DNA of 46,568 nucleotides. Origin: a virus. Its lineage: Duplodnaviria; Caudoviricetes. Below are positions 9,804 through 43,252 of the stretch, one piece after another (position 1 is the first letter of the stretch; each line of letters begins with the position of its first letter). Made by a program: the position numbers and the translations under genes. The stretch is taken from IMG/VR virus record IMGVR_UViG_3300010362_000032, positions 1 through 46,568 of that record; one strand, given 5' to 3'. Below the pieces are notes generated by a model, which saw only the letters and a list, made by a program, of their open reading frames with translations, did no database searches and was not told the DNA's origin.

Positions 9804-10355
9804 TTAAGCCTCCGACACCTCTATTATTGCAGATACCTGCCCCAACATGAACCCTTGCGCTGTTATGTACATAAAGTCAGGTGCTATTGATTGGTCGAGT
9901 TTAACGCAGATATCATTACCCTGCGTTGCCATTAGCCCTGGCTCAAACATGACCTCTTTGGATGTCTTAGGTCCACAGCTGGTGAACCCTATAACGTTTG
10001 CAGCAACTGGGCCGTCTAAGAACGATAACACTACTGCATCGTGAGTGGACGCGTTAAGCAGCTGGCACGATTTCATGACAACGCTATCCGTAATCGACCC
10101 TGGGGTCAGCGTTAACAGCGGTATAACTGTTTGGTCTTGTAACGCCAGTGCTCCATGAAGGTATTGGTCAGATAGCTGTGCTCCTTCTCGCCTATATTGC
10201 CCACACCAATCGTTTGCTTTGACTGTTCTCCAAGTGTTAGTTTGTGGCGTTATGATAGATGGGTCCCAGTGGCATTCGTAGTAATAGTTAGGATCAGTTC
10301 CAGCCTGGACTACGTACTTACAAGTCTGACAGCTTTGTCCAGGTGGAGCCGGCAT
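9804..10355 (-). CDS. Hypothetical protein with N-terminal Cys motif
   Basis: CQTC..ECHWDP..W..V...DWCGQY followed by a beta-rich domain. Confidence 0.7.
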   Translation of the reverse strand: MPAPPGQSCQTCKYVVQAGTDPNYYYECHWDPSIITPQTNTWRTVKANDWCGQYRREGAQLSDQYLHGALALQDQTVIPLLTLTPGSITDSVVMKSCQLLNASTHDAVVLSFLDGPVAANVIGFTSCGPKTSKEVMFEPGLMATQGNDICVKLDQSIAPDFMYITAQGFMLGQVSAIIEVSEA

Positions 10356-11011
10356 TAAAACCTCCGCTTAAAAGTTCCCCGATCCCCAGACCCAACCACA
10401 GTCCCAGTTGTCTGGTACGTTGTCAGGTCTGCTGATCGGGGCAAGGCGGGCGTTAAGGGAGGCTCTAAAGCTGCTGCGAATTGCTCGGTAGTGATAACCT
10501 TACCAGACCGTTCAATTGCTTTGTCTAGCATAGCCGCAAAGTCAACGCTGATATTGGTCTGTAGGCTTCGCTTAGACAAGCCAACGCGATCTGCTGCATC
10601 TCGGGTTATGCTTAGCAGTTCTCGGATACTCAGTTCATCGTTTTCGTCATCATCGAGTTTATCTGCTATCTTGCGTTCGGCTTTCATGCCATTGGACAGG
10701 ATAAGGGCGTTGTAGGCAGTTATTTGGTCTCGCGTTAGGTCATCTTTAACCTTGGTGTAACCAGCAATGAGCTCTTTAAAGGTTGGGTTATTATAATGAA
10801 CGCTAACCCTGCTAATCGAGTAGCCCATTGTCTCGGCTACCTGACCCACACGCATCCCCATGGCAAATAACCTTGCCATTTCGTGGTGAGAGTCCCTATA
10901 TCTCTTTATAGGCGGATCACGACCTTGCCTGAATGACGATAGGTCATCAGGAGTCAATTCACGAACATGCGTGATTGATGGCCGTTTAGTTGGTCGACCA
11001 GGGCCTGGCAT
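10355..11011 (-). CDS. HTH protein, probable terminase small subunit
   Basis: First gene of late operon; ARLFAMGMRVGQVAETMGYSISRVS HTH-like segment, helical body. Confidence 0.6.
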   Translation of the reverse strand: MPGPGRPTKRPSITHVRELTPDDLSSFRQGRDPPIKRYRDSHHEMARLFAMGMRVGQVAETMGYSISRVSVHYNNPTFKELIAGYTKVKDDLTRDQITAYNALILSNGMKAERKIADKLDDDENDELSIRELLSITRDAADRVGLSKRSLQTNISVDFAAMLDKAIERSGKVITTEQFAAALEPPLTPALPRSADLTTYQTTGTVVGSGDRGTFKRRF

Positions 11012-11038
11012 GGGGGACTGTTCCAGGCTGAAGGTAGT

Positions 11039-11067
11039 ATTATAGCACGTCCTGGGTTGATTGTCAA
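11039..11067 (-). promoter_or_regulatory. Consensus sigma70 promoter of late operon
   Basis: TTGACA-N17-TATAAT with extended TG, 27 nt upstream of ATG 11011. Confidence 0.9.
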
Positions 11068-11447
11068 GGTTGCGTTAACGATATGTATACAACTGTGACC
11101 GGTATATGACAGGGGATTTGATGTGGGGTTAGGTATGGGTGCTTGAAATCACACAAAATATGGGGAGGATATCTGGCCACGATCGAGCCAGCGCCTTTGG
11201 GCCCCCGGGGGTGGCGTGGGGGTCACGAAGCGTGGGCTCGAAGCCCGTGCGTGCGTGGGCGTGTGCGTGCGAGGCACAGACCCGAGGCACACATGCGTGC
11301 GAGGCTAAGGCTAAGGGGGATCACGCAACCGTGATAGTTGTTCACGATCTCGTGATCGAAATGCCTTGAAAAAGCCACAATCGGGGCGCCCAATGGCGTG
11401 GTCGGCCAGCCACAGGGCTAGGCCATAACCCGAGAGGTAGGACTACG

Positions 11448-11702
11448 ATGACCGTCCATGTCGATCTCCAAGCTGAAATCGCACGGCTTAAGGCTGAGAA
11501 CCAGGCCCTTAAGGATGCCAAGGCCAAGACTGGGATGAAGGTATCGGAGAAGGGTGCTCTGTCAGTCTATGGCGTTGGGAAGTTCCCGGTAACCCTGTAC
11601 AAATCCCAATGGTTAGCCCTGCTAGATCGCAAGCAGGATATCCTAGACTTCATCGAAGCCCATCCCAATCTGAAGTCTAAGCCGGTGAAGGATGGCGAGT
11701 GA
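11448..11702 (+). CDS. Conserved small phage protein of unknown function
   Basis: Coiled coil plus KVSEKGALSVYGVGKFPVTLYKSQW motif, which I recall from other phage proteins; SD present. Confidence 0.85.
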   Translation: MTVHVDLQAEIARLKAENQALKDAKAKTGMKVSEKGALSVYGVGKFPVTLYKSQWLALLDRKQDILDFIEAHPNLKSKPVKDGE

Positions 11703-11785
11703 TGGATAGCCTTCACCCAGGATGGCTGCTGCTAAAGCTCAGCCTGATAGCCTTGGCGATAACGCTGACTATCATCTACGCCTAA
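11702..11785 (+). CDS. 27-aa single-TM peptide
   Basis: MDSLHPGWLLLKLSLIALAITLTIIYA; TGATG-coupled. Confidence 0.55.
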   Translation: MDSLHPGWLLLKLSLIALAITLTIIYA

Positions 11786-11808
11786 TCTAACCCCAACACA
11801 AGGCAATC

Positions 11809-11834
11809 AGCCCCGGCATAGTCCGGGGCTTTTT
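11809..11834 (+). terminator. Rho-independent terminator
   Basis: AGCCCCGG-catagt-CCGGGGCT followed by T tract. Confidence 0.85.
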
Positions 11835-14964: not shown

Positions 14965-15600
14965 TTAGGCATTCAGCCCACGACGGCCACTGGCAACCTT
15001 GCCAGCCTTAGCCGCAGACAACTGCTTTGCAGCCTTAGCCGCCGCAGCCTTAGCCTTAAGCTCAGTATCCTCGGAGATATCCCCAAGGTCCAAGCCTCCA
15101 GCTTCCTCAACCTCAGCCTCATTAGCCTCGATCTGAGCCTTCGCCTTAGCGACCAACTCAGGACGAGCCAGAAGCAGAGCATTCGCGTGCTTGGTGATTA
15201 CCGCAGACTTGATAAGGCTGACCTTGAAGCCCTTCTTCTTGATTTCAGCCTTAACGATAGTCCGGGCGAACTCCCGTGCCAACTTCATGACCTCCGGCGC
15301 AACCTTATCGCCCTTGGCCTTGCTGCCACGGATAACCATCGTACCAGCGTACATGGCTGCAAGGTTTTCATTTGCCTTAGCCATGACCGCAGCCTGGAAC
15401 TCACCCAGGGTCTTATAGTCTTCCTTCTTGAGCTTCGCCATACCCTTGTTAACGTGGGTCTTGGCGCCTTCCTTGAGCATATTGATGTAGATATACTCAG
15501 CAACCCTGCCAGTATCTACCTCAATCTCGCCACTCCTGCCCTTGCTAACAGCAACGGTAAGAATGGTAGAGGGATTGCCTTCAGTCTGCACATCAGTCAT
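14965..15600 (-). CDS. Lys/Ala-rich basic protein, possible DNA-binding; contains paralogue domain
   Basis: Start MTDVQ with CAGGAGA SD; strong codon bias; KAKAAAAKAAK tail. Confidence 0.8.
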   Translation of the reverse strand: MTDVQTEGNPSTILTVAVSKGRSGEIEVDTGRVAEYIYINMLKEGAKTHVNKGMAKLKKEDYKTLGEFQAAVMAKANENLAAMYAGTMVIRGSKAKGDKVAPEVMKLAREFARTIVKAEIKKKGFKVSLIKSAVITKHANALLLARPELVAKAKAQIEANEAEVEEAGGLDLGDISEDTELKAKAAAAKAAKQLSAAKAGKVASGRRGLNA

Positions 15601-15737: not shown

Positions 15738-16022
15738 CTAGCTTAATGCTTCCTTAGCTTTGTTAAGGAAGAACTCACCAGAGTTAAACAATAGCACCGT
15801 AACGCCATTCTCCAACTCTCTCTGGCTTATATCCTCGATACGCTTACCCTTAGCCCTAAGCTCACGCTTAAACTGTGCCAGTGCTATAGTCCTAGCCATT
15901 GTCTGCACAGGCCCAGGCACCCATAACTCACGATGATACGTGGTCTTAATTTCCTCTCGCTTAGGCTCACGACGCTTTAATCGCTCAACCTTAACGAGCT
16001 TACCATTCTGCCTGCGGTACAT
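15738..16022 (-). CDS. Basic hypothetical protein, paralogue family member
   Basis: 94 aa, coupled, AGGAGG SD. Confidence 0.7.
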   Translation of the reverse strand: MYRRQNGKLVKVERLKRREPKREEIKTTYHRELWVPGPVQTMARTIALAQFKRELRAKGKRIEDISQRELENGVTVLLFNSGEFFLNKAKEALS

Positions 16023-16243
16023 CAGACCCTCCTAAGCTTAGCTGTAGGAGTATTCCAGACCTGCAAGTCATCCAGATTACCTTCATCCGTGTCATACCTT
16101 ACAGGCGTACAGTCATCAGGGCACGGAAAGTCTGGATGATCGAACTCTGCAACAGTACCAAGCTCCAATGTCCCGGTATGCTGTACCCTATCGCCTGGCT
16201 GTGGTGGCCAATGCTTTAGCCTTGGTCCGATCATCTTTGTCAT
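16022..16243 (-). CDS. Hypothetical protein, SH3/KOW-like pattern
   Basis: PGDRVQH...GTV...VRYD....LRRV. Confidence 0.6.
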   Translation of the reverse strand: MTKMIGPRLKHWPPQPGDRVQHTGTLELGTVAEFDHPDFPCPDDCTPVRYDTDEGNLDDLQVWNTPTAKLRRV

Positions 16244-17014: not shown

Positions 17015-17043
17015 TTGACAATCACGCCAAGACCTGCTATAAT
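17015..17043 (+). promoter_or_regulatory. Consensus sigma70 promoter of replication operon
   Basis: TTGACA-N17-TATAAT with extended TG. Confidence 0.9.
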
Positions 17044-17069: not shown

Positions 17070-17447
17070 ATGGACGATCTTGCCAACTTAGGCTTCAAGA
17101 ACGTCAGTTACTTGAATGGCCCAGGTGTATATGTGCTCTGCTATAAGCGCAGGGTCATGTATGTTGGCAAAACCATGAATGGATTTCAAAGGGTTGGGCT
17201 GCACGTTAATAATATTACATTCGATCAAGTATACTTCGTTAGACATGATCCAGATGGATTAGACACATTTGAGAAGCAAATGATCGCTCAACTGGAGCCA
17301 TCTCTAAATCTAAACATATACATGACTGGGACGGAAAGCAGAGCATTTGGATCGATATTCCATGATAATTGGGCTGAAGAGTATACGGAAACAGAAAAAG
17401 ACTTGAGAGAAGCACTTGGCATATCAAAGTTTCCTAGGAGATTTTAA
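17070..17447 (+). CDS. GIY-YIG nuclease-domain protein
   Basis: PGVYVL..VMYVGKT..RV..H..E..MI..LEPSLN. Confidence 0.8.
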   Translation: MDDLANLGFKNVSYLNGPGVYVLCYKRRVMYVGKTMNGFQRVGLHVNNITFDQVYFVRHDPDGLDTFEKQMIAQLEPSLNLNIYMTGTESRAFGSIFHDNWAEEYTETEKDLREALGISKFPRRF

Positions 17448-17755: not shown

Positions 17756-18079
17756 ATGGACAAACTAATCGACAAAGAGTTCCTAGCTAAAATAGACGCT
17801 CAACTCTCTGCACCGCTCCCAACTCACAACCAAGAAGACCTCGGCGATAGTTTTACCCTGTTGGTCGACAAGCTAGTCGAGATGAGAATGGAAACAGCCA
17901 AGCAACTGTTAACCATGGCAGAGAACAATCTTCACAAGGTCGAGCAAGAATGTAACCAGCTTAAGCTCGACGCTAAACGCAAATGGGAGGAATACCAGCG
18001 AATGCTTGGAATGCTGCAAGAAGCTGGATCAGCTACAGCTGATATCGGTAGAAAGATCAGCAATGGGTTTAGCAAATGA
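17756..18079 (+). CDS. Coiled-coil hypothetical protein
   Basis: 107 aa, GGAGG SD. Confidence 0.7.
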   Translation: MDKLIDKEFLAKIDAQLSAPLPTHNQEDLGDSFTLLVDKLVEMRMETAKQLLTMAENNLHKVEQECNQLKLDAKRKWEEYQRMLGMLQEAGSATADIGRKISNGFSK

Positions 18080-18294
18080 CACACGAGTCCACGTTCGAAT
18101 ACCTCAAGCCAGCCGAAGGACAGATCGTGCACATGGCCATCGTTAGGGAGGCATTCGCTGATATGGCCAAGATCATTGATAAACATGTCCCTGATGGTCC
18201 AGACAAAACCCACACTATCCGATTGCTACGCACCGCTGGTATGTGGGCCAACGTTGCGATAACCCGTCAACCAGACGGTTCCCCACGAGAATAG
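18076..18294 (+). CDS. Acb2/Tad1-like helical-hairpin protein (candidate signalling-nucleotide sponge)
   Basis: FEYLKP..Q..M..VREAF..A..I..VPDGPDK....L...MWANVAITR matches the family pattern as I recall it. Confidence 0.6.
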   Translation: MTHESTFEYLKPAEGQIVHMAIVREAFADMAKIIDKHVPDGPDKTHTIRLLRTAGMWANVAITRQPDGSPRE

Positions 18295-18302: not shown

Positions 18303-18605
18303 ATGAAAGAGGTAGTCTACTACAACTGCAAATCGAACGGCTCCGGTTATCACCTGACCAAGTTCGATGAAGACCTTAACCCAATCTCTGAACAATACGA
18401 TACATCGCTTGCTGAGTGTACGTGTAAAGCCGGTGTTAGACCAACCTGTAGGCATCGACAGATGCTTCCCTTGTTCCAGCATCTTGGTCGAGTTAACACC
18501 GGCTGGTTCTTCGAGTTTGATAGCCAGCGATGGTATTATTTAGACCAGATGTCTGGGGGTCTGGTTGCCGAGAAACGCGTTAAGGGCTGGTGGAGGCGAG
18601 CATGA
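18303..18605 (+). CDS. SWIM-type zinc finger protein
   Basis: ECTCKAG..TCRH (CxC..CxH). Confidence 0.7.
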   Translation: MKEVVYYNCKSNGSGYHLTKFDEDLNPISEQYDTSLAECTCKAGVRPTCRHRQMLPLFQHLGRVNTGWFFEFDSQRWYYLDQMSGGLVAEKRVKGWWRRA

Positions 18606-18844
18606 CCAGAAATGAGCTTCGAAGCGAACTCTACTATCTCGTCAAGGACTGGCATAAGGTCGACAAGATATTCATGCTGTTCGGCAAACTGGCTCCTGAA
18701 CCCCCTCCGAAGAAAGAGGTTCCACAGTATGACCTCAAGCTCGTCCGTAGAGTTGGAACTTTGCTCCAAAGGGAAAAGTTCAGCCCAGAACTCCATGAAG
18801 CAGCCAGAGCCCTGCTCGCCAACCTTGAACTGGACCTTGAGTGA
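18602..18844 (+). CDS. Hypothetical protein
   Basis: Coupled ORF MTRNEL.. Confidence 0.65.
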   Translation: MTRNELRSELYYLVKDWHKVDKIFMLFGKLAPEPPPKKEVPQYDLKLVRRVGTLLQREKFSPELHEAARALLANLELDLE

Positions 18845-19119
18845 TGACCCAATACCTAATCCTGCACAAAGTCAGAGGCGAGCCTAGCTTCGACTGTGCC
18901 GTCGAGATCGAACCCGATATGTGGATAACCAACTCGGGTTATCGGGCTTATCCCTACAAGAAATGGTCGTTGGACGATCTATTTACCAACGACCGTTTCG
19001 ATGTTGTTGTGCCCGATGATTGGCCCGACCACTTCGAGGTTCGAAAAGAACCTAAGATGGAAATCAATCTTGGAGATATCCTATCCGGTTTAATTGGCAA
19101 ATTCCCACGGAGAGCGTAA
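18844..19119 (+). CDS. Hypothetical protein
   Basis: YLILHKVRGEPSFD..WI...GYRAYPY..WPDHF; coupled. Confidence 0.7.
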   Translation: MTQYLILHKVRGEPSFDCAVEIEPDMWITNSGYRAYPYKKWSLDDLFTNDRFDVVVPDDWPDHFEVRKEPKMEINLGDILSGLIGKFPRRA

Positions 19120-19851: not shown

Positions 19852-21325
19852 CGAACAACAAGCAATCCTAGATGCCCTTCGCAACACAGGAGACAACATA
19901 GCAATCGAAGCTTCTCCAGGCTCAGGCAAGTCCGAAACCCTACTTATGGCTCAAGCAGAGGTTAAAGAGCCATGTCTTTATGTTGCCTTTGCCAAAGCAG
20001 ATGCTCAAGGCTTTGGCATGGAGAAGGACGAGTTTGGTATCCCAACCAAGAAGCCAAAACCAATTCTCAAATCCACAACCAAAGCTCAAACTCTCAACTC
20101 TCTTGGTCATGGGGTTTGGGGTACAGTGGTAAGCAAACTTGTGTTCATGGATGGCCGTACTAACGACAAGAACAAGCTCTTCCAAATTCTCTCTAATATG
20201 TTTAACGAACTTAAGGGAAAGGACCGCAAGGATGCCTGGGACCAATACTCGGAAATCCGTGAAGCAGTCTCGATGGCCCGCCATCTCGGATACATCCCAA
20301 CTGGAGCTAGAGCTTTTGCGCCATATGCCAAGTCCATCTGTAATCGCGAACAACTCGAAGTTCGCCTCGAAAACAAGCCAACACAGTTCGCGTGGTCGCT
20401 CATCGATAATGCCCTCATCACTTCAATCAAAGCTGCTTACACTGGGGTCATTGATTACGACGATCAAATATACATGTCCGGCTTGTTCGGAGGTACATTT
20501 CCTAGATTTCCCTATGTTCTGGTCGACGAACGCCAAGACCTCGACCCCGTTAACCATGCGATGCTCGACAAACTCTGCCGTAACAGTCGGTTGGTTGGGG
20601 TGGGCGACAAGTGGCAATCGATTTACTATTTCCGGGGGGCTGAAACCAATGGCTCGGAGAAGATGAACAAGAAGTTTTCTATGGTTGAGTATCCTCTAAG
20701 CGTTAGCTTTCGGTGCCCCAAAGCCATAGTCGAAGCTGCACGCTGGCGTAACCCAACCTTCAAGTGGGTCAAAGATGGTGGGCGTTATGAAACCTTGTCA
20801 ACTTTTGCTGCATCCGACATCCCCGAGGGAGCGGCTGTGGTATGTCGAAATAATGCTCCATTGCTTCGAGCAGCCTTTAGCCTGTTGTCAGGGAAAAGGT
20901 CGGTGCAAGTTGTTGGAAGTGACATCAGCGCTAAGATCGTCAAGCTTCTTGAGAAAATTGGCGATCCTAGGGACAGCAAAGACACCCTCCTACTCAAAAT
21001 CGATGCATGGCGAGACGAGAAGCTCAAAACATCGAACAACCCAGCAACAACCCACGACACAGCCGAGTGTCTCAAAGTCTTCGCCTCGTGGGGCAACGAT
21101 GTTAGCCAAGCAGTTGCCTACGCAAAGCACATATTCAGGCAGCAGGGCGCTATCACGCTCACAACGGGCCACAAAGCCAAAGGCAAAGAGTGGGAGATAG
21201 TATACCATCTAGATCGCCAGCTTCTCGGCCAAGACGATCAAGACCTTAATCTGCGTTACGTCATCCAAACCCGCTCAAAGGATGCCATGTATGAGATCAC
21301 TACCGGAGAAACAGTATGGCAATAA
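19826..21325 (+). CDS. Superfamily 1 (UvrD/Rep-like) helicase
   Basis: ASPGSGKS, VDERQD, VGDKWQSIY.FRGA, SFRCP, TGHKAKGKEW, YVIQTR. Confidence 0.92.
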   Translation: MPNNLKPTDEQQAILDALRNTGDNIAIEASPGSGKSETLLMAQAEVKEPCLYVAFAKADAQGFGMEKDEFGIPTKKPKPILKSTTKAQTLNSLGHGVWGTVVSKLVFMDGRTNDKNKLFQILSNMFNELKGKDRKDAWDQYSEIREAVSMARHLGYIPTGARAFAPYAKSICNREQLEVRLENKPTQFAWSLIDNALITSIKAAYTGVIDYDDQIYMSGLFGGTFPRFPYVLVDERQDLDPVNHAMLDKLCRNSRLVGVGDKWQSIYYFRGAETNGSEKMNKKFSMVEYPLSVSFRCPKAIVEAARWRNPTFKWVKDGGRYETLSTFAASDIPEGAAVVCRNNAPLLRAAFSLLSGKRSVQVVGSDISAKIVKLLEKIGDPRDSKDTLLLKIDAWRDEKLKTSNNPATTHDTAECLKVFASWGNDVSQAVAYAKHIFRQQGAITLTTGHKAKGKEWEIVYHLDRQLLGQDDQDLNLRYVIQTRSKDAMYEITTGETVWQ

Positions 21326-21762
21326 ACCTATCTCGCCTAGCCTATGGGGACTGCTACGACCTCTTAGAGAAGGCGATCAGTAGCGATTATCCGACTGGCC
21401 TACGCGTTAAGTTCGCCAATCGTAACGAAGCTATCCATTTCCGGCAACGGTTACACAATGCTCGTTATGTCGATCGGCTTGATAACACGAAGGTTTATCC
21501 AGACACTCATCCTATGTATGGGCGATCGGTATATGATATTGTTAACATTCGCGTTCGTGATCTGGTTGATGGCTGGTGGCTTCGTCTTGAACGCGTTGAT
21601 GCTAGGCAGTTTACAATAGTGGCCCTGGAAGACGATATCGAAGTTAACGCTTTGGTCATCGAAACGCCAAAGCCAACAGAGGCTTCTGTTGTAACCAATG
21701 GTGGTAACCCAGTCACTGTCCCTGTTGAACCCATTCGCGTTAAATTCAAACGGAGGTTCTAA
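21316..21762 (+). CDS. Hypothetical protein
   Basis: 148 aa, GGAG SD. Confidence 0.75.
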   Translation: MAINLSRLAYGDCYDLLEKAISSDYPTGLRVKFANRNEAIHFRQRLHNARYVDRLDNTKVYPDTHPMYGRSVYDIVNIRVRDLVDGWWLRLERVDARQFTIVALEDDIEVNALVIETPKPTEASVVTNGGNPVTVPVEPIRVKFKRRF

Positions 21763-21968: not shown

Positions 21969-22110
21969 CCCTGTAGTCGCGATTGTCGAACGCATGATGG
22001 AGCAACTTCAAAAAGATAACCCCGGAGTTGACTTCAAGCGCAAAGTCAAACCTAAGATCGAGAAGCCCAAGCCTACCAAGCTTAAGAAACCCAAGCTCGG
22101 CTTACACTAA
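21955..22110 (+). CDS. 51-aa Lys/Pro-rich protein, not in ORF track
   Basis: MGTTDPVVAIVERMM..KPKIEKPKPTKLKKPKLGLH; GGAGG SD; TAATG-coupled. Confidence 0.6.
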   Translation: MGTTDPVVAIVERMMEQLQKDNPGVDFKRKVKPKIEKPKPTKLKKPKLGLH

Positions 22111-22349
22111 TGCAGCTTATCGACCTATGGATAGCCGCCGCTAACGCTAAGCTTGGCATATCTATAACCACTGATGATCGAATGCTGCTACGCCAGCACT
22201 TATATCGTGCTCGGATGGAGGCCACTAATCGAGCAGACCTAGACGATATAGTGATGGTTCTCCCTGAACAAGCAGATCAAATATGGTTGGTGCACCGTGA
22301 GGGTAGTCTCGGAACCAATAACCAAAGTAACTTTGAACCTCTTTTCTAA
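22110..22349 (+). CDS. Hypothetical protein
   Basis: 79 aa, coupled. Confidence 0.7.
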   Translation: MQLIDLWIAAANAKLGISITTDDRMLLRQHLYRARMEATNRADLDDIVMVLPEQADQIWLVHREGSLGTNNQSNFEPLF

Positions 22350-22500
22350 AGACGTAGAGTGGTTCAAGCAGAACTTTCCTATGGGCTACACAGAGGCCAT
22401 CCGTGACGCCTTGCGCAAACACATCCGACAAACAGAGCTAATGGAAGATGAACTTAGATATGGGTCTTCAAATTTCACATTTCGTGGAGAAAATGAATGA
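22297..22500 (+). CDS. Probable ribbon-helix-helix DNA-binding protein
   Basis: KVTLNLFSKDVEWFK...GYTEAIRDALRKHI. Confidence 0.6.
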   Translation: MRVVSEPITKVTLNLFSKDVEWFKQNFPMGYTEAIRDALRKHIRQTELMEDELRYGSSNFTFRGENE

Positions 22501-22718
22501 GCAAAGAACTCGATGAAGCTATGGATGCGATCCCAAACATTTCGGAAGAACAAATCGAACTGTTGATACAGTTCCAGCTTGAAGAACTTGCTGCATACTC
22601 TGGCAAGAAAGCCCGTGCCAAGAAAGACCAGTCAGAAGAAGAAGTTGAAGCCGCACTATCAGCAATCACACAGTCAGCACCAGCTAAACCAGCAGGCAAG
22701 TTTGTTAGGAGGTTCTGA
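22497..22718 (+). CDS. Hypothetical protein
   Basis: 73 aa, coupled at both ends. Confidence 0.7.
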   Translation: MSKELDEAMDAIPNISEEQIELLIQFQLEELAAYSGKKARAKKDQSEEEVEAALSAITQSAPAKPAGKFVRRF

Positions 22719-23650
22719 TGCAGGAGCTAATAGAAGTTGATGACTTCCCAATGCCTAGTCCGTTCATCAACGGCGTTCAATATGCATGGGACTCGACCGC
22801 GTTAGAATACCTCAAACGCTGCAAGTACCTGCACAAGTTCAAGAAGGATGGCTGGGAACCTAAAGAAGAAGCCATCGCCTTACGCTTCGGGCGTGAATAC
22901 CATAAGTGTCTACAAGACTATGAAATCCTGAAGGCATTGGGCCGTAAGCATAAGGACTGTGTGTTCGATGTTGTCCGTAATCTCCTGTTTAGGCTAGTCG
23001 ACTGGAACCCTGATGATAAGAAACGCAACCGAGATACTCTAGTCCGCACAGTTGTCTGGTATCTTGAGAAGTTCAAAGACGATAACGCCAAGACCTTAAT
23101 CCTGACTAACGGTGACCCAGCAGTAGAGATAACCTTCAGCTTCGAGTTAGACTTCGGGCCTAAGAACTCAACCCAACCCTACGTTCTCTGCGGTAAGCTC
23201 GACCGCGTAGTAGATTTCAATGAGGACCTTTTTGTTATGGACCGCAAGACTACCACATGGGGGCTTGGTGCTACCTACCAGAGAATGTGGACACCACATA
23301 ATCAAATGTCCCTCTATACATTGGCAGGTAAGCGTGTGTTTATGACAGAAATTAAGGGCGTTATAATTGACGCCGCCCAACTGCTGATCGGCAGTACCAA
23401 CTACGATCGCTTCTTCATCTATCGCACCCAAGAACAACTCGATGAATGGCTACACGATCTTGAAGCCCACTTGCGTTGGTATGAGCATTGCCTTGAGTTT
23501 GATCGCTGGCCTCAAGACGATACCAGTTGTGATAAGTATGGTGGCTGTACCTATCGAGAAGTTTGTAGCAAACCAAAATCAGTTCGTCAACGCTTCCTCC
23601 GCTCTAGCTTTGAACAGGTAGAACCATGGAACCCGCTTGCACCAAGATGA
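22718..23650 (+). CDS. PD-(D/E)XK exonuclease, RecB/Cas4-like with probable Fe-S cysteines
   Basis: N-terminal C, G..YH, GKLDRVV..VMDRKTT, Q..LY, C-terminal C..C..C. Confidence 0.88.
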   Translation: MQELIEVDDFPMPSPFINGVQYAWDSTALEYLKRCKYLHKFKKDGWEPKEEAIALRFGREYHKCLQDYEILKALGRKHKDCVFDVVRNLLFRLVDWNPDDKKRNRDTLVRTVVWYLEKFKDDNAKTLILTNGDPAVEITFSFELDFGPKNSTQPYVLCGKLDRVVDFNEDLFVMDRKTTTWGLGATYQRMWTPHNQMSLYTLAGKRVFMTEIKGVIIDAAQLLIGSTNYDRFFIYRTQEQLDEWLHDLEAHLRWYEHCLEFDRWPQDDTSCDKYGGCTYREVCSKPKSVRQRFLRSSFEQVEPWNPLAPR

Positions 23651-23778
23651 GTGACGAAGACCTGATCCATGAAATCAGGAAAGCATGCTACATACACTTT
23701 GGTAAGAATAACATCCTCATGATCGAAGAGCTACTTAGGAGATACAAAAATGCCCTTGCTAAGTCAGCATCAGTCTAA
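23647..23778 (+). CDS. 43-aa hypothetical protein
   Basis: ATGA-coupled ORF MSDEDLIHEIRK.. filling the gap. Confidence 0.45.
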   Translation: MSDEDLIHEIRKACYIHFGKNNILMIEELLRRYKNALAKSASV

Positions 23779-24583
23779 CGAGTTCACAAAGATGATAGTG
23801 CTGGGTGACCCAGGCACAGGCAAGACAGGAGGCTTAGCATCTCTGGTTAAGGCTGGCTATAAGTTGGCCATTCTAGATTACGATAACGGCCTAGACATTC
23901 TCCGCTTGTTCATCGAACACGAGTGCCCCGATAAGATCGATAACGTGATCTTCAAGTCCCTTCGCGATAAGTATAAGATGATCAATACCCAGCTTATCGT
24001 TGATGGCCCACCGAAAGCATTCACCGACGGTCTCAAACTTCTAGACGAATGGCCTGACTATGGTAAACCCTCAGAGTGGGGACCGGAGTGGGTACTCGTG
24101 GTCGACTCATTAACTCATTGTGGCAGGGCATCATTCGATTGGGCTAAGGTAGCAATGCCTAAGAACCCCGATCCTAGAGCAGCTTACTTCTTTGCTCAGA
24201 CCGGCATTGAAGCTATGCTTGCTGACCTAACCAGCGAATACTTCCGTACCAATGTCATCGTTATAACTCACGTTAACTATGTTGATACGGAAGATGGCAA
24301 GCGGAAGGGCTATCCGAACGCTATCGGTTCAGCCCTCTCGCCCAAGATTGGGTCATGGTTTAACTCCATGGCTTTGTGCACCATGAAAGGAAAGGAACGC
24401 GTTATCCAGACAGCACCCACAGGACAGATCGACCTTAAGAACCCAGCACCGTTTGCTATGCTGCCTGAGTATCCAATCTCAACTGGCTTAGCAGAATTCT
24501 TCAAGGTTCTTAAGAAACCAGAGACAAACAAACCAACGCCTACCAAACCCACAGCAATGAGACCCACAATTGTACGGAGGTAA
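23750..24583 (+). CDS. AAA_24/Sak4-like ATPase (recombination)
   Basis: GDPGTGKT, ILDYDNG, VVDSLT, VIVITH; lies between exonuclease and SSB. Confidence 0.85.
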   Translation: MPLLSQHQSNEFTKMIVLGDPGTGKTGGLASLVKAGYKLAILDYDNGLDILRLFIEHECPDKIDNVIFKSLRDKYKMINTQLIVDGPPKAFTDGLKLLDEWPDYGKPSEWGPEWVLVVDSLTHCGRASFDWAKVAMPKNPDPRAAYFFAQTGIEAMLADLTSEYFRTNVIVITHVNYVDTEDGKRKGYPNAIGSALSPKIGSWFNSMALCTMKGKERVIQTAPTGQIDLKNPAPFAMLPEYPISTGLAEFFKVLKKPETNKPTPTKPTAMRPTIVRR

Positions 24584-24589
24584 TAGAAG

Positions 24590-25152: not shown

Positions 25153-26157
25153 ATGACTGACATGATGTTCATAGGTGAAGCCTGGGGCGAGCAGGAGGCT
25201 CGACAACGGACTGCGTTTGTCGGACCAACAGGGCGATTGTTAACCAGCTTGATGATCGAAGCAGGCATTCGCAGAGCAGACTGCTTCTTAACCAACGTGT
25301 TCAACATTAAGCCATTTCAAAACAAGATAGAGAACCTTTGTGGTTCGAGAGAGGAAGGTATCCCTGGTCGACCAGCGTTACTCCCAGGTAAGTACGTTAA
25401 GAAAATGTATGCTGGGGAACTCAAACGATTGTATAGTGAACTCAAATTGCACAAACCCAACATCGTGGTCTGCTTAGGCAACACAGCTATGTGGGCCATG
25501 CTAGACAAAACCCGAGTAGGTAAAGGCCGTGGCGTTGTTCAGATGTCTCCCGGCGGTCACAAGTGTATCGCCACGTTCCATCCCGCAGCTATCTTCCGCC
25601 AGTGGGGCTTGCGCCCAGTCACTATCCTAGACTTAATGAAAGCTAAACGCGAGTCAGAGCATCCTGACATTCGCCGCCCTCAACGTCATATCTTTATAGA
25701 ACCTAGCTTGGAGGATATCTATGAGTTCGACAAAAGATACATACAACCCTGTGAAAGACTTAGCGTTGACATTGAAACTGCTGGACAAATTATTACGTGC
25801 ATCGGCTTTGCCCCATCTCCCGATGTTGCTATCGTTATTCCGTTCTATGACCCCCGAAAGCCAGGAAGAAATTATTGGAGCAACATCGAAAGCTATCGTC
25901 AAGCTTACAATATTGTCAAAGCTATTCTATCAAGACCAACTCCGAAAACCTTCCAGAACGGGCTCTACGACATCACATTCATTTACAGAGCCTGGGGAAT
26001 AAAGACCTATGGAGCAACAGACGACACAATGCTAGCTCACCACGCGTTACAACCAGAGCTACTCAAAGGCTTAGAGTTTCTTGGTAGTGTCTATACAGAC
26101 GAAGGCCCATGGAAACAGATGCGAAAGCACAAGACCACTATCAAGCGTGAAGACTAA
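25153..26157 (+). CDS. Family-4 uracil-DNA glycosylase fused to N-terminal part of PolA 3'-5' exonuclease
   Basis: IGEAWG..E...FVGPTG, LTNV, VCLGNTA, TFHPA; ExoI VDIET, ExoII QNGLYD, DTML. Confidence 0.9.
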   Translation: MTDMMFIGEAWGEQEARQRTAFVGPTGRLLTSLMIEAGIRRADCFLTNVFNIKPFQNKIENLCGSREEGIPGRPALLPGKYVKKMYAGELKRLYSELKLHKPNIVVCLGNTAMWAMLDKTRVGKGRGVVQMSPGGHKCIATFHPAAIFRQWGLRPVTILDLMKAKRESEHPDIRRPQRHIFIEPSLEDIYEFDKRYIQPCERLSVDIETAGQIITCIGFAPSPDVAIVIPFYDPRKPGRNYWSNIESYRQAYNIVKAILSRPTPKTFQNGLYDITFIYRAWGIKTYGATDDTMLAHHALQPELLKGLEFLGSVYTDEGPWKQMRKHKTTIKRED

Positions 26158-27614
26158 TGAAGATCATCGACACCAGCAAGACTCCAAGACTGTCTAACAT
26201 TGACAGCGAGTGGGTCTACAACGGCCTCGATTGCTGCGTTACCGCAGAGATTATGGAAACTCTGGTCGAGCAATTCGACAGCGTTACCACTGCAACCTAT
26301 GACTTCTCACGTGCGTTACAAGGACCCGTATTCGACATGCGTGTCCGTGGCGTTCTCATAGATCAGGAACGCCGTAAGCAAGTCCTTGATGAATACGCTG
26401 GCTTCGTAGATCAATGGGAAGAAATCCTCGAGCGGCTAGTCCGTGAGGGTACAGGCTTCCATGGCTTTAACTGGCGTTCATGGCAAGACCTGCACAAGCT
26501 TCTCTACGATATCTATCTCATCCCACCAATCCGAACCAAGGAAGGTAAGCGTACTGCTAACCGTGATGCACTAGAGAAGATGGAGTTCTATCGCATAGCA
26601 CGCCCTGTAATCCGCTTCATGGAATACCTGCGTGACCTCGACAAGAAGATGGATGTACTAGCACAGGAGTTAGACAATGACGGACGTATACGAACTAGCT
26701 ACAATATTGCTGGCACTAACACTGGTCGTTTTAGCTCTAGCTTTAGCGAGTACGGCACTGGCGGTAACCTACAAAATATTGAAGAGTCTCTCCGGTCGGT
26801 CTTCATAGCTGACCCAGGTATGAAGCTAGCCAACTTCGATGCAGAGCAAGGTGAATCTCGCATAGTCGGAGCCATCGAGTGGAACCTATTCCATAAAGGT
26901 GAGTATCTAGATGCATGCGAGAGTGGCGATCTGCACACAGTAGTATCCCGCTTGTGTGAACCTAGTATGCCTTGGACTGGTGACATGTCTAAAGATCGCG
27001 AGATAGCCGAACGACCATATTATCGCCATCACGATCTACGCAAGCTATGCAAATCAATAGGCCATGGCACCAACTACCTCGGCGGTCCAGATACACTCAG
27101 CCGTCAATACAAGATAGATGTCCCAGCTATAGTGCAATTCCAAGAACGATACTTCGGGGTCTTCCCAGCCCATCAGATGTGGCATAGGTGGGTCAATGAA
27201 AGGGTCAGATCATATGGCTATCTAGTTTCCTTTATGGGCCGTAAGCGTACCTTCTTCGGTAGGCGAGACGATGATAAAGTAATCCGAGAGGCTATAGCTT
27301 ACGATCCACAAGGGTCTCTATCCGACATAGTAAACCAAGGCATGCTTCGAGTATGGCATGCAAGAGACTGTGAACTGCTAATGCAGAACCATGACTCGAT
27401 CTTAGTCCAATACCCACAGGAGCAAGAAGATGAAATCATCCCCAAGCTCCAATCTCAACTGCACCATATAATCCCACTGAAGCATGACCGAACGCTGACC
27501 ATACCATACGGATGCCAGACTGGCTGGAATTGGGGCAAGCATAAAGAGAGCAATCCAGATGGCCTTAAAGCGTACCACCCCGGCGATCAACGGACCCGGC
27601 AAGCGAGCGTGTGA
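26157..27614 (+). CDS. polA: Family A DNA polymerase (ExoIII plus polymerase domain)
   Basis: YNGLD, TGRFSS, NLQNI, motif A DAEQGESR, motif B RKLCKSIGHGTNY, motif C HDS. Confidence 0.95.
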   Translation: MKIIDTSKTPRLSNIDSEWVYNGLDCCVTAEIMETLVEQFDSVTTATYDFSRALQGPVFDMRVRGVLIDQERRKQVLDEYAGFVDQWEEILERLVREGTGFHGFNWRSWQDLHKLLYDIYLIPPIRTKEGKRTANRDALEKMEFYRIARPVIRFMEYLRDLDKKMDVLAQELDNDGRIRTSYNIAGTNTGRFSSSFSEYGTGGNLQNIEESLRSVFIADPGMKLANFDAEQGESRIVGAIEWNLFHKGEYLDACESGDLHTVVSRLCEPSMPWTGDMSKDREIAERPYYRHHDLRKLCKSIGHGTNYLGGPDTLSRQYKIDVPAIVQFQERYFGVFPAHQMWHRWVNERVRSYGYLVSFMGRKRTFFGRRDDDKVIREAIAYDPQGSLSDIVNQGMLRVWHARDCELLMQNHDSILVQYPQEQEDEIIPKLQSQLHHIIPLKHDRTLTIPYGCQTGWNWGKHKESNPDGLKAYHPGDQRTRQASV

Positions 27615-38971: not shown

Positions 38972-41574
38972 TTGGATGTGTCTCCCACCATTATCTCTGG
39001 GATAACACCAAGAATTGTAGCCGGTAGTGGATCATCAACCTGTAGACAGATTTGCCCAGGAACATCCCATAGTGGGTCCATAACAATGCGTTCGTCACCG
39101 GTAACTAACGCTACTGGCTGTCCCATCTGCGTTACACGGTTCATCTCTTTAATCGGCGTTAGGGTCTGGAACGTCCTGCCAGCTTTAACGCCACGGCTAT
39201 CCTTAACCCTAACCGTCAATGCAGAGACTTTCTTGCGCTTGCCTTGAACAGTTTGCTGCTCGTTACCCAAGTCCAAGGGCATAGTCTGTAGCTGCATCTG
39301 ATAGCCCAGCCCTATCGTTACATTAGATGCTGGGGCTGGTAATGTGATAGAACCACCCTGAACCGTCAGATCGCGAACAACACCACCATCTGCTAGAACT
39401 GATACTTGCTGGCCTTCCAGATGGTCTAGTCCATGTACCACAGTAATCGGTGGATCAACTGCCCAAGTCCCAGGGATACCTATATCTGGGCGCTTCTGTG
39501 GGTCATTGGGGATTAACGCAGTTATGGGCTGGATCATTTTACCCTTAACCTGGGTAGGGCTAATGTACTGCGTTACCTCAGCCTTACCACCACCAACTCT
39601 GATGATCCAGCCTACCATATTAGAACCGAATACAGCTGCGTTGGCGGTAAACGTAGCTATACCCACTGGATCAGGTAGGGTAGATATTAACACAGCTGTT
39701 GGAGTGTTGTGTACAGTAGACACACCACAATCTACGCTCCAAGCATCTTCTGCACCGAACGTAAATATTCGATCAGTAATACGTTCGATATATAGCCTAA
39801 AATCACCTGTGATCGGATTAGGCCTAGACACAGCCACATAAGTAGCATCGACACTACCCTCCGTTACCGTACAGACAGACTCAAAGTTTCCAAAGGTATC
39901 GTGGCGAGCCCAGCCGTACATGTCTTGTTCTTTAACCAAGGTTAGGGATAGCATAACGCCATCTTCGCGAACCACCCAAATCATCTTAAATGGTTCCTCA
40001 GCGTAAGCCCATTCCTTTATCTGATGCCCATAGAACAGGTGGCTGCTGAGAATAGAGATATCGTTACCTGTGTAAATATTAGCGTAGATATTGTAAGTAA
40101 GATCACGTACAATTGAACCTTTTTGTTGCACGTAGAAGATATCGTAGTTAACAAGGATTGGTGGTACATCGTTAGCTCCAATATAAGCTTGTGCAGTCGC
40201 AGTTAGCGTTGCTGGCGTTATAGGCCCACCTTGCGTTGCAACGCCACCTGCACCGCCTGATACCTGCCATGCGCCTTTAGTTGTTAGCATCACCAAGCCA
40301 GAAGGCATTGGTATCATAGATTTGATTTCGTTAACTTCAAGGCTAACTAATTCTGCATCAACTGAGTCATCATCCTGAATTGGATTGCTTGTGTCGAAGT
40401 TATAATAAGATGCCACTTTCGACATCCAGAACCTATCAACTTCATTACCGCCAGCGTTAGCGTACACAAGCCGCTGTTGGAAATAGCTAGACACTTGCAC
40501 ATGTCTAGCACCAGTAAACGGGTCTCGGTGTATAGGTGGCACTTGTGCAAAGTCTGGCGTTATGTTGGCATCAGTGAATGCACCATCCGTAGAAGTGCCT
40601 ATATAGCCAACTTCTTGCCCAGCACTAGGATTACCAGTCGTAGATACCATTGACTTATAAAAGTTATAAGCAATCGCACCAGCAGAACCTGCCGTCACAC
40701 CCATGTTTACCGTTCCGGTAGTGGTCCGCATATCCACAACACCAGAAGCGTACGCTACAGGAGCGGCTGGAGACTCCTGTCCATTAATATCAACAGCAGT
40801 TGCTGTGTACATAATAAATGCAGGCCCAGAGGCACTAGCAGATATACTGAGCGTTCCAGGTGGTGCAACACTAGCACCAATAGTAGCTTGGACTAAACTC
40901 CAGTTGGTTGCACTAACTAACGTTAACACATTCGCAAAGTGTGCTGGATGCGTTATATTCATCTGCGAGCCCTTCTGTGAGAACTTTAGAAGAGCTAGCT
41001 CAGATGCAAGATAAGGAGTACCTATAGTGTAGACCCGCTGAGATGTCCCAGCACTAACAAAAGGTGGCCATGCAGATGAGTTAACAGGAAGGCTGGTTAC
41101 ATCGTCAAGTATGGTAACGTTAGCACCACTAACAGCACCAACAACAAAAAACCTGCCATTTATCTGCGGTACTCCAGCAACTCCTTGTACGAAGATTAGT
41201 TGCCCGATAGCATAGTTATTCCCAGGTATATTCAGTATAGTAGATGTACCCTGAGTAATACCACCAACAGGAAAGCTAGTTTCAACAACTGCACCACCTT
41301 GCGTTATAAATCTAAGATACTGATTACCAAACACAAGCACATAAGTTACATCAACAGACTGCTGAAATCTAACGAGCCGGACAGGCCCATTAAGTTGGAT
41401 AGGCGCCATAATAAATTCAGTACCAGCCCTGGTTGAAGCACCGCTACGATAGTCAACAAAAAAATTGCGCATAGTAGCAGCACCACTATGATATTTAGCA
41501 AAGTCAACTCTGGCGAACAGGCTCGGAGAAAGTTCGCCAGAAGCAAACGAAGTCTGGATAACATTGTCACTCAT
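38968..41574 (-). CDS. Tail tubular protein B (nozzle)
   Basis: QTSFASGELSP, NF.V..G..R.G, YFQQRL, GWARH, HLEGQ.V.VLADG, PLPATIL. Confidence 0.93.
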   Translation of the reverse strand: MSDNVIQTSFASGELSPSLFARVDFAKYHSGAATMRNFFVDYRSGASTRAGTEFIMAPIQLNGPVRLVRFQQSVDVTYVLVFGNQYLRFITQGGAVVETSFPVGGITQGTSTILNIPGNNYAIGQLIFVQGVAGVPQINGRFFVVGAVSGANVTILDDVTSLPVNSSAWPPFVSAGTSQRVYTIGTPYLASELALLKFSQKGSQMNITHPAHFANVLTLVSATNWSLVQATIGASVAPPGTLSISASASGPAFIMYTATAVDINGQESPAAPVAYASGVVDMRTTTGTVNMGVTAGSAGAIAYNFYKSMVSTTGNPSAGQEVGYIGTSTDGAFTDANITPDFAQVPPIHRDPFTGARHVQVSSYFQQRLVYANAGGNEVDRFWMSKVASYYNFDTSNPIQDDDSVDAELVSLEVNEIKSMIPMPSGLVMLTTKGAWQVSGGAGGVATQGGPITPATLTATAQAYIGANDVPPILVNYDIFYVQQKGSIVRDLTYNIYANIYTGNDISILSSHLFYGHQIKEWAYAEEPFKMIWVVREDGVMLSLTLVKEQDMYGWARHDTFGNFESVCTVTEGSVDATYVAVSRPNPITGDFRLYIERITDRIFTFGAEDAWSVDCGVSTVHNTPTAVLISTLPDPVGIATFTANAAVFGSNMVGWIIRVGGGKAEVTQYISPTQVKGKMIQPITALIPNDPQKRPDIGIPGTWAVDPPITVVHGLDHLEGQQVSVLADGGVVRDLTVQGGSITLPAPASNVTIGLGYQMQLQTMPLDLGNEQQTVQGKRKKVSALTVRVKDSRGVKAGRTFQTLTPIKEMNRVTQMGQPVALVTGDERIVMDPLWDVPGQICLQVDDPLPATILGVIPEIMVGDTSK

Positions 41575-41645
41575 CTAAGGCCCTGGAATAGAATGGCTAT
41601 CGCCAGGAAGATTACACACAACGATAGTAGAGTTGTGTTGCTCAT
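41571..41645 (-). CDS. 24-aa single-TM peptide between tail A and tail B
   Basis: MSNTTLLSLCVIFLAIAILFQGLR; start overlaps tail A stop, stop overlaps tail B start. Confidence 0.65.
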   Translation of the reverse strand: MSNTTLLSLCVIFLAIAILFQGLR

Positions 41646-42454
41646 CAGTACATCGTCAGCATCGGGCCCCAATCGAACATGATGTTCGGTGAAAACTCCC
41701 AGGCCTGATAGCTGATGCCCCTGACTCTGATCCAATCTGGCGTTACATCATTGATGGTTAACCCTTCATTACCATCTCCAACCCGAGCTACTTGAATAAA
41801 CTGATTGGCCTCTTGGACCTTAAGCTGAGCCAAGCCTTTATCGCCAGTTAATGCAATAACCAGCCTTGATCCTAATGCTGCTACCAAAGCCTGCTGAAAG
41901 CCATCATCCCATACCTCAGGATTGGTTACACGCTTGACATACGCCAGGATAGCTTGTTCTTGATTAGTCCATATAACTTTCTGATCCGTGCCTTTGGGAT
42001 CAGGTTTACCACTCTGACCAATCTGATCGACACCAACCTTGTACCTAACCGGCGGCCCATTCCAAAAGGCAGGTGCACCACCCGTTACCGCAGTGGTAAT
42101 TGGCACGCCAGAAGTGAAACCAGTAGTAAACTGAGGCACAACAAATACAGGACGTAAACAATCGATGGGATACGCATACTCATAACTCCACGGCGGCGGT
42201 GGTATACCCTTTTCCCAAACATTTGCACCTGCCGTTGGGTTCTCAGGCGTCCCCGGTGCTGCACATATTAACGCAAGATTGGCATAGTTAAATGCACAGT
42301 TCCAAGGAGCCATGCGTAGAAGCTCGTCTCGCAAAGGATCAAACAACAGCTTGACCGCACGAGCCTCATTTGAGTCTTCATCAAAGGAAGCTATCTGCGA
42401 CCGAGTGCCGATCGCAGATAACGACCTGTTCGCTATGTCGACGGGGCTAGTCAT
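41645..42454 (-). CDS. Tail tubular protein A (adaptor)
   Basis: VDIANRSLSAIG..EAR..RDELLR..PWNCA..W.Y.YAYP.DCLR..F..AL...L. Confidence 0.9.
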   Translation of the reverse strand: MTSPVDIANRSLSAIGTRSQIASFDEDSNEARAVKLLFDPLRDELLRMAPWNCAFNYANLALICAAPGTPENPTAGANVWEKGIPPPPWSYEYAYPIDCLRPVFVVPQFTTGFTSGVPITTAVTGGAPAFWNGPPVRYKVGVDQIGQSGKPDPKGTDQKVIWTNQEQAILAYVKRVTNPEVWDDGFQQALVAALGSRLVIALTGDKGLAQLKVQEANQFIQVARVGDGNEGLTINDVTPDWIRVRGISYQAWEFSPNIMFDWGPMLTMY

Positions 42455-42711
42455 CCCCGTTGACTCCCGCCGCTATGAGTGCGACCACCAGAGCCAGGGC
42501 TACCAGAACCACGATCAGCCACGGGGCAACGAGCGTTTCCGTGGTTGTGGGCATGTAGACCTGGGCCTTGATGGTGCTGGTTAAGCGGACCCTGTGGTGG
42601 GCTATAAGTGGTAGGCTTAGCCTCCTTAATCCCACCCGTAGTTGCTCTAGCCGCCTGCGGCTTCGAGATGTCCTTCCCGTACTCGCTTAGAATATCTCTG
42701 CCACCTTTCAT
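42451..42711 (-). CDS. Gly/His-rich hypothetical protein
   Basis: MKGGRDILSEYGKD..; coupled at both ends. Confidence 0.6.
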   Translation of the reverse strand: MKGGRDILSEYGKDISKPQAARATTGGIKEAKPTTYSPPQGPLNQHHQGPGLHAHNHGNARCPVADRGSGSPGSGGRTHSGGSQRG

Positions 42712-43025
42712 CATACTCTCCTTTCATATGTGGCCGGCTTAGGAGTAGCTGGCCTTTCATCCATAGCCTGTGCTTTCTGTTCGTCTTCCTTAGCTCTCTT
42801 GATCCGCTCTTCCTCAGCCTTCTTAATCTCTTCCTCTTTCTCCTTCTTAGCTTTGGCTTCCTCCGGATAGAGTTCTTCCCAAAGCTCAAGATCAATCTCT
42901 GACAGCTTCATCTGAGAAGCCTGCCTAATGCTTGGGTACACTTCTTTGATAAGGTCGAGGATTGTCAGAAGCTGCTCGACCTTTTCGCTATCGTAGTCTG
43001 GTGCCTTCTTAGGTTCGTCAGCCAT
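42711..43025 (-). CDS. Charged hypothetical protein
   Basis: 104 aa, coupled. Confidence 0.65.
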   Translation of the reverse strand: MADEPKKAPDYDSEKVEQLLTILDLIKEVYPSIRQASQMKLSEIDLELWEELYPEEAKAKKEKEEEIKKAEEERIKRAKEDEQKAQAMDERPATPKPATYERRV

Positions 43026-43252
43026 TAGTGTCTCCCTTGTGTTCCGCTACGATGAATGGTTCGTCCACCACCAGGACCGGCTGTAGCTGGCTTAGGGCCA
43101 GGTGGATTGTAGCCCTTACCCTCAATAATGGGTTCCCTTTTGAACTGTGTAGCCAAGCCTTGCTGCGCTACACCAGCCTCAGAGGCGCCTTTTGAATGGG
43201 GTTCCCGCTTCCACGACTCGTGTCCGCTTTTGTCCGCTCTGCCTTGCTTCAT
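43025..43252 (-). CDS. Small basic hypothetical protein
   Basis: MKQGRA..GPGGGRTIHRSGTQGRH; SD present. Confidence 0.7.
   Translation of the reverse strand: MKQGRADKSGHESWKREPHSKGASEAGVAQQGLATQFKREPIIEGKGYNPPGPKPATAGPGGGRTIHRSGTQGRH

Follow-up and report, generated by a model that had tools for sequence, protein, structure and literature searches.

The window analysed here is a 46,568-nucleotide stretch of viral DNA (IMG/VR record IMGVR_UViG_3300010362_000032), a near-complete (96%) podophage of 46.6 kb, in which a set of unrelated proteins ends in the same five-residue pattern, hydrophobic-x-Arg-Arg-hydrophobic before the stop codon, referred to below as the tag. The structural genes are of the epsilon15/phiV10 type, as judged by shared structural PHROGs, and the replication module encodes an SF1 helicase, a PD-(D/E)XK exonuclease, a Sak4-like ATPase, a split family-A polymerase, a primase and a protein which, from its gene position, we take to be SSB-like. 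Using a per-genome gene caller, 8 of the 72 called genes of the window, i.e. about one in nine proteins, end in the strict motif [FMILVWY]-x-R-R-[FLIVAM]-stop and 11 end in R-R-x, compared to a background rate of 0.038% for the strict motif among internal 5-mers. The six main and four looser ends listed in a first-pass annotation were all located at their stop codons (Table 1), and the Lys and Phe residues preceding the Arg pair are indeed specified by mixed synonymous codons (AAA/AAG, TTT/TTC). Two further open reading frames (ORFs) have the loose ends FARRVR (45677) and WDRRR (13216), and the early-gene ends are the same in a near-identical independent assembly (L001).

Table 1 Tagged and variant protein ends of the window, and the untagged exonuclease. 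Family counts give the members that carry the strict motif, or for the exonuclease any tag.
Feature	Position	Strand	Remark
TerS-like helix-turn-helix protein (ORF 11011-10355), TFKRRF end, tag F-K-R-R-F-stop	10355..10372	-	on a predicted disordered linker
Loose variant K-L-R-R-V-stop (ORF 16243-16022)	16022..16039	-	end present in the sequence
GIY-YIG-like protein (ORF 17070-17447), KFPRRF end, tag F-P-R-R-F-stop	17430..17447	+	family 7/11 strict
SWIM-like CxC..CxH protein (ORF 18303-18605), GWWRRA end, tag W-W-R-R-A-stop	18588..18605	+	ATGA overlap; second Arg is a non-SD codon
91-aa protein of unknown function (ORF 18844-19119), KFPRRA end, tag F-P-R-R-A-stop	19102..19119	+	L-x-x-L-G-L-type helix precedes the tag
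148-aa alpha/beta protein of unknown function (ORF 21316-21762), KFKRRF end, tag F-K-R-R-F-stop	21745..21762	+	family 21/61 strict
73-aa protein upstream of the exonuclease (ORF 22497-22718), KFVRRF end, tag F-V-R-R-F-stop	22701..22718	+	family 37/75 strict
PD-(D/E)XK exonuclease, untagged	22718..23650	+	family 0/89 tagged
Sak4-like AAA_24 ATPase (ORF 23750-24583), TIVRR end, variant I-V-R-R-stop on a Pro/Lys tail	24569..24583	+	family 6/62 strict
Late-region protein (ORF 43025-42711), TYERRV end, variant Y-E-R-R-V-stop	42711..42728	-	relatives differ (see text)
Doubtful member (ORF 43496-43179), PFKRRL end, F-K-R-R-L-stop within a gene overlap	43179..43196	-	other-frame reading

Gene calling in 248 related loci yielded 3261 distinct protein ends, which were reduced to 2887 at 85% identity; among these, 244 end in R-R-x and 165 in the strict motif, the latter spread over 36 families. 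The shared C-terminal motif proposed in the first-pass annotation, [KTP]-F-x-R-R-[FAL], is real, but the motif of the clade is wider, with F/I/L/M/V at position -5 and F/I/V/L/A at the last residue (-1), and K-F-x-R-R-F is the variant of the lineage to which the window belongs. At least eight families without relationship to one another (among them TerS-like, GIY-YIG-like, SWIM-like and Sak4 proteins and others of unknown function) carry the tag at the tip of a flexible, variable Pro/Lys-rich linker, in agreement with the Pro-rich disordered tails described earlier, and such an island of conservation on disordered, length-variable tails of unrelated proteins is what characterizes a short linear motif. 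The TerS-like family illustrates this best: 29 of its 45 members have a strict and 33 an R-R-hydrophobic end, with Arg216 conserved to at least 90% after a linker that cannot be aligned, differs greatly in length and is predicted to be disordered (pLDDT < 50 at residues 184-188 and 190-211). The best BFVD match of the protein is TerS (E = 7e-4), which together with synteny makes it a probable TerS, as had been supposed, whereas the designation of the 17070-17447 product as a GIY-YIG nuclease is weakly supported (Pfam E = 0.009, below the cut-off) and a search with this protein recovered only itself.

Tagging varies among the remaining families. SWIM-like proteins carry strict ends in 11 and loose ends in 15 of 24 members, their Cys/His residues being invariant and a SWIM match being obtained for 2 of 21 homologues. 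In the 91-aa family 18 of 23 members are strict, and an L-x-x-L-G-L-type helix lies upstream of the RR tail in 11 of the 23; the same type of helix persists upstream of the tail in 29 of the 75 members of the 73-aa family, 52 of which have at least a loose tag. A search with the 73-aa protein gave an F-x-R-R-F end in 12 of 12 matches (one being the query itself), and in an independent library RR lies within the last six residues of 137 of the 150 top-ranked representatives of 50% clusters, 84 of them strict, a count that is biased by a profile which includes the tail. Most untagged members of the 148-aa family end in acidic tails; the window's member gave a confident model, in which the linker is partly ordered, and a fold search with it returned no match. 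The Sak4 family has many L-R-[KR]-[VI] variants, and its tag-less lineages end directly after the domain. In a late 169-aa family 4 of 16 members are strict and 11 loose, the window's member being without the tag, and ORFs at the position of the 42711 end in relatives include some that end in [IVY]-[ED]-R-R-[VIFT] and others that do not. No tagged member was found in the exonuclease, SSB-like, helicase, polymerase and primase families of the clade. Outside the clade, 11 isolate genomes sharing the terminase or the polymerase contain the strict motif in 1 of 615 called genes and none of the 11 is tagged genome-wide; structural PHROGs are shared between the window and epsilon15/phiV10-type podoviruses. 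A scan of the collection for F-K-R-R-F-stop on Arg codons other than those of a Shine-Dalgarno (SD) sequence gave 113 matches, nearly all in short or antisense frames and none clearly in the clade.

Since TAATG and ATGA overlaps place the SD sequence of the next gene in frame as Arg-Arg, we sorted the hexamer MGGAGR before ATG according to how the upstream gene reads it, dropping genes that scored < 3. Where it is read as R-R-x-stop, both -5 and -1 are hydrophobic in 80 of 101 cases, compared to 31 of 422 where the same hexamer lies elsewhere (intergenic 13/155, other frame 16/204, in frame at other distances 2/63). TTY occurs at -5 in 30 of the 101 in-frame ends and in 24 of the 422 controls; for a spacer of 5 alone, the numbers are 29/86 and 6/122. 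The eight in-frame SD-hexamer ends of the window, which were listed by hand, behave likewise, with TTY at -5 in 5/8 versus 24/422 controls (p = 2.9e-5) and hydrophobic residues at both positions in 6/8 versus 31/422 (p = 3.9e-6). The SD sequence accordingly leaves the hydrophobic residues at -5 and -1 unexplained, as the first-pass annotation had argued for the upstream and the terminal F. The information is concentrated at codon position 2 (0.87 and 1.28 bits), positions 1 and 3 holding only 0.07-0.19; that is, the tag is conserved as amino acids in one frame with synonymous sites left free, and is under selection at the protein level.

The tag is also bound to the free C-terminus. In the tag families, RR stands at -3/-2 from the stop at 95 of 111 TRATG and 42 of 76 ATGA junctions, compared to 14/367 and 8/620 in other families; its register follows the stop and not the start, and CGN is used at -2 in 18 of 24 ATGA tags. 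Neither SD nor coupling is needed for its presence: uncoupled ends match the motif in 9 of 708 cases (0.27 expected), and among 17 R-R-x ends of tag families without a nearby start codon, 15 are hydrophobic-ended, 10 strict and only 8 retain an SD core, which is held in the Arg codons of 75 of 81 TRATG-coupled tags. In L003, L004 and L008, the tail of the 73-aa protein is kept without a following start, the exonuclease start lying ~150 nt upstream. In sister lineages with the same gene module (76 further loci, 162 TRATG junctions), 1367 ends include 8 R-R-x and 1 strict. We therefore consider SD overlap, the co-option proposed in the first-pass annotation, to be the likely origin of the tag, and not the reason for its maintenance. 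One of the examples given there is doubtful: the 43179 end, cited as independent of the SD, is weak evidence, because its R-R-L-stop arises from a conserved S-K-G-[AV]-S-E-type stretch of the next gene read in another frame. Its homologues have an R-R-[LVIF] end only where the ORF enters the next gene, several close ones stop earlier without a tail, and the end is probably an overlap artefact, at best dual-purpose.

The three loci with the displaced start present an observation of their own. Traced backwards, the frame of the exonuclease stays open for ~150 nt within the 73-aa gene (L003 3243-3420, L004 1470-1629, L008 1359-1524), its ATG derives from a Trp codon of that gene, and an acidic dual-coded leader replaces the TAATG coupling.

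The residues around the Arg pair change in step within genomes. Along an exonuclease tree, built by a quick method, unrelated families of one genome have a variant in common, such as K-F-x-R-R-F (window), F-x-R-R-V (L238, L239, L068), R-R-K-L (L182), V-K-R-R-x-I-P (L211, L089), R-R-S-W (L187), R-R-P-x-L (L051), R-R-P-L (L075) or R-R-G-L (L214). The string following RR is the same in 57 of 156 cross-family pairs, compared to 11.3 ± 2.5% after permutation within families (p = 2e-4, the floor of the test), for 22 lineages separated at 65% exonuclease identity, a threshold of 55% having collapsed them to one group. The last residue is identical in 66 of 127 cross-family pairs, compared to 25.2 ± 4.5 permuted within junction type, for 23 hand-picked lineages; by position, the excess is confined to -5 (0.39 vs 0.16) and -1 (0.52 vs 0.18), with none at -8 to -12. 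Codons of the shared residues are no more alike within genomes (58/147) than between them (516/1357). Among ten whole records, G003-G007 have 4-7 strict tags each, G001, G002 and G010 have longer variants, and G008 and G009 have none. In G003, two unrelated proteins share nine identical terminal residues with most synonymous sites differing, and in G010 three proteins end in R-R-P-L.

G009, which has no RR tags, has five acidic ends of the D-x-L-D-[LI] type, and in sister lineages (L450-L525, L014, L252) the same families as in the tagged lineage bear other tails that recur genome-wide: D-L-D-[LI]; K-I-[SN]-I or L-D-I-[KRQ]-L; L-x-[DE]-L-G-L; and L-A-D-L-L-G-D-D. These tails co-vary as well (score 1.44 vs -2.11 ± 0.68, 25 lineages, p = 2e-4). 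Given that members of the 73-aa and 91-aa families retain the L-x-x-L-G-L-type helix ahead of the RR tail, the latter looks as if it had been appended there to an older tail.

From these results we tentatively favor, as the best of the explanations considered, a short protein-level motif which docks many unrelated phage proteins on one co-evolving partner, probably encoded by the phage itself. Read-through into the SD of the next gene (AGG AGG to Arg-Arg) would have created the tail, in some families behind the older one, and the tag on its variable linker may then dock on a single receptor, whose surface would be acidic and hold two hydrophobic pockets, and which would differ between lineages and co-evolve with residues -5 and -1. 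The best argument for a single partner is the change in step across genes: a free C-terminus in which the Arg pair is fixed and the hydrophobic anchors on either side co-vary suggests one lineage-variable two-pocket receptor. We favor a phage protein, presumably of the DNA replication/recombination and packaging machinery, because fast, co-ordinated turnover is explained most simply in this way and because T4 offers a precedent. There, and in RB69, C-terminal epitopes on variable linkers of gp43, gp55 and gp33 bind the gp45 clamp (PMC2988020), which resembles the tag in that a short C-terminal epitope behind a linker variable in length and sequence is common to unrelated proteins of one phage. 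Those epitopes are hydrophobic-acidic, occur on three proteins including the DNA polymerase and address a known phage clamp, whereas the tag is basic, occurs in at least eight families and switches between lineages; no clamp gene was found in the window, and its polymerase subunits end otherwise. Less probable, though a real possibility, is a wider scheme, in which a large group of uncultured podophages would maintain a private, switchable addressing system, with phage receptor and C-terminal tag co-evolving. Whole lineages would exchange one chemistry of the tag for another (acidic helix, alternating beta-strand, Arg-Arg), genes acquired later would take on the resident variant, and the present version would have been built by exapting the overlapped SD.

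Several points weigh against docking on a phage partner. No clamp or known hub was found among the 55 proteins compared with PHROGs and the 30 compared with Pfam, many small genes being unannotated, and column-wise co-variation of the tag variant with 14 protein families gave no convincing receptor. Many of the carriers are small and lack an assigned function, which is equally compatible with a generic fate such as degradation. Early and late genes of one genome may differ (R-R-F early and R-R-V late in G004; also G001 and G002), two within-genome pairs (L187, L075) were seemingly copied at the DNA level, and the 23 lineages of the last-residue and per-position tests were chosen from the quick tree. 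Within tag families, 119 of 141 coupled but 19 of 37 uncoupled ends are tagged, and most tags still lie on SD codons; the counts of the SD test contain homologues, so that its p-values (1e-10 to 1e-29, Fisher) overstate independence. The untagged universal proteins (the exonuclease, the SSB-like protein and the 79-aa protein at 22110-22349) are candidates for the receptor only. A charge-swap scan against the sisters found exonuclease columns that are acidic only in the tagged lineage (E60, D95, D272, E281), a pattern confounded by the single origin of that lineage. Position 29 of the 22110-22349 product (z = 5.3) was not accepted as a receptor signal, being weak and uncorrected for the tree and ~2,700 columns, and a family that occurs in 21/25 tagged loci but in 0/3 without the tag was rejected as a hub, having no homologue in the window.

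A close rival, just behind docking and in our view a real if minor possibility, is that a host AAA+ protease (ClpXP or Lon) reads the tail as a C-degron or tether, by which early, packaging and nuclease proteins would be short-lived or remodelled off DNA, with variants tracking host preference. In having basic residues before a hydrophobic end, the tails resemble the ClpX degrons of MuA (RRKKAI), itself a phage protein, and FtsZ (..FLRKQAD), and the tag agrees in sequence with ClpXP C-motif 2 (PMC8138137, PMC12723719), i.e. a basic cluster, a hydrophobic and non-acidic free end and an unstructured C-terminus: none of 207 RR tails ends in D/E, and the linker is predicted to be unstructured. From those degrons the tag differs by its fixed Arg-Arg, the hydrophobic anchor at -5, a last residue that is mostly F/I/L/V, its genome-wide occurrence and its co-variation. 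Some late proteins have -AA/-VA ends, and the GANTC depletion of the window (observed/expected 0.36) hints at an alphaproteobacterial host. For Lon, the L-D-I-[KRQ]-L tails of L461 and L473 are nearly identical to the Caulobacter FliK degron LDIRI as given in PMC8545394, which likewise comprises five C-terminal residues with hydrophobic -5 and -1; at -3, where FliK has Ile, the window tag has Arg. The C-terminal His degron of Lon (x-L/I-L/I/V-H, as quoted from PMC11986505) is not matched, a terminal His occurring in one of the 207 tails. The tight change in step of two anchors among related phages would be hard to derive from conserved host proteases, other sister tails on the same families are acidic-ended (L-L-G-D-D, L-E-G-L-E) and unlike degrons, and no precedent was found for a genome-wide degron on TerS and Sak4.

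A host hub other than a protease, such as the sliding clamp, RNA polymerase or a polar organiser with host-specific variants, appears unlikely. Known carriers act on DNA, the window has no clamp or RNA polymerase gene among its annotated genes, and its two perfect sigma-70 promoters indicate reliance on host machinery; however, hubs are conserved and the tag turns over quickly, and the bacterial clamp motif, which is of the Gln..Leu-Phe type, is not matched. Action in cis in the ribosome exit tunnel, where slowed termination would tune re-initiation at the overlapping start, is quite improbable. It would suit the Pro-rich tails (15% vs 6%), a register tied to the stop, the enrichment of tags at coupled junctions, and the penultimate Arg and hydrophobic last residue of most tags, which recall R17-L18 of the type II proline-rich peptide apidaecin (PMC11347161). 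The tag, in contrast, is fused to folded phage proteins and variable in register, lineages with two or three residues after RR lacking the penultimate Arg; it is kept without coupling, at ends that have no start nearby and a decayed SD, and also where the following gene starts ~150 nt upstream, and the acidic tails that these families bear in sister lineages would stay unexplained. We give equally little weight to a basic-aromatic tail that would anchor non-specifically to DNA, RNA or anionic membrane: carriers are often DNA-acting, and in the tagged lineage a 211-aa early protein, too, acquired a basic extension (median net charge +11.5, compared to -4 in the sisters), but identity in step at -5 and -1 would be unexpected, and the tail seems too short for a membrane helix. 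Least probable of all is a tail without protein function, arising merely from the overlap with SD and U-rich flanks or from the copying of DNA between junctions, as could be argued from the SD core of the coupled tags, the 43179 artefact and the two copied pairs, and which is contradicted by the frame-controlled SD test, the codon-position data, the sister lineages and the change in step. A twin-arginine (Tat) signal was rejected: Tat signals have an N-terminal RR motif followed by a hydrophobic h-region, whereas RR is C-terminal here and without an h-region.

No description of such a phage tag was found in searches of the open-licence literature. We regard the tag as real and undescribed; its kind, a shared C-terminal docking or degradation epitope, is known, and its breadth, its lineage-wide switching and its likely SD origin set it apart. 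With a tenth of a small phage proteome under one signal, it provides a handle on many hypothetical proteins together, and the identity of its reader would place the carriers in one pathway, which could be their timed destruction or their assembly where replication and packaging take place. The tag further provides a clear example, accessible to statistical tests, of how a translation signal is co-opted as a protein motif and of how such a motif turns over in concert in genes that are unrelated. Being only five residues long, the tag can be tested on GFP, and phage culture is not needed.

No close isolate of the window phage was found. The nearest isolate for the replication module is Caulobacter phage Kuura (OQ067476.1), whose exonuclease, Sak4 and polymerase are 31-36% identical. 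GANTC is the CcrM site, and in 56 long loci of the clade its depletion (observed/expected 0.54; Kuura 0.25) exceeds that of all others among 16 spaced palindromes, which suggests an alphaproteobacterial host. The same enquiry revealed no excess of CtrA boxes, a host search in the genome collection gave three contigs binned into metagenome-assembled genomes, of mixed taxa and without an informative prophage, and lysin and tail-spike searches yielded no close indication of the host. TTAA-N8-TTAA is over-represented across clade loci (28 vs ~8), the N7 spacing not.

Further observations concern individual genes and sites. The two sigma-70 promoters (TTGACA-17-TATAAT, extended TG) at 17015-17043 (+) and 11067-11039 (-) precede the GIY-YIG-like and the TerS-like gene, respectively, and the first gene after each is a tag carrier. 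The family-A polymerase at 25153-27614 (+) consists of two coupled ORFs, the first with a fused uracil-DNA glycosylase domain. The 211-aa early protein (14965-15600, -) is conserved, belongs to no known family and matched only unnamed viral clusters in an atlas search; members from the tagged lineage exceed the others by ~50 residues and have a Lys/Ala-rich end. Judged by eye, the neighboring families of 21316-21762 and 22110-22349 (+) have the look of distant paralogues. The small Gly-rich late proteins at 42451-42714 and 43025-43252 (-) have relatives with conserved ends of the H-x-x-G-[ST]-Q-[GR] type. The phrog_1454 protein at 18076-18294 (+) is a likely anti-defence nucleotide sponge, since the Acb2/Tad1 nucleotide-sponge hairpin (PF24729) is matched weakly (E = 1.3e-4) by a clade protein of similar size and strongly (E = 1e-10) by another. 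Some relatives encode a T7 gp5.9-like RecBCD inhibitor (L251 6493-6675, +; PF25708, E = 7e-15).

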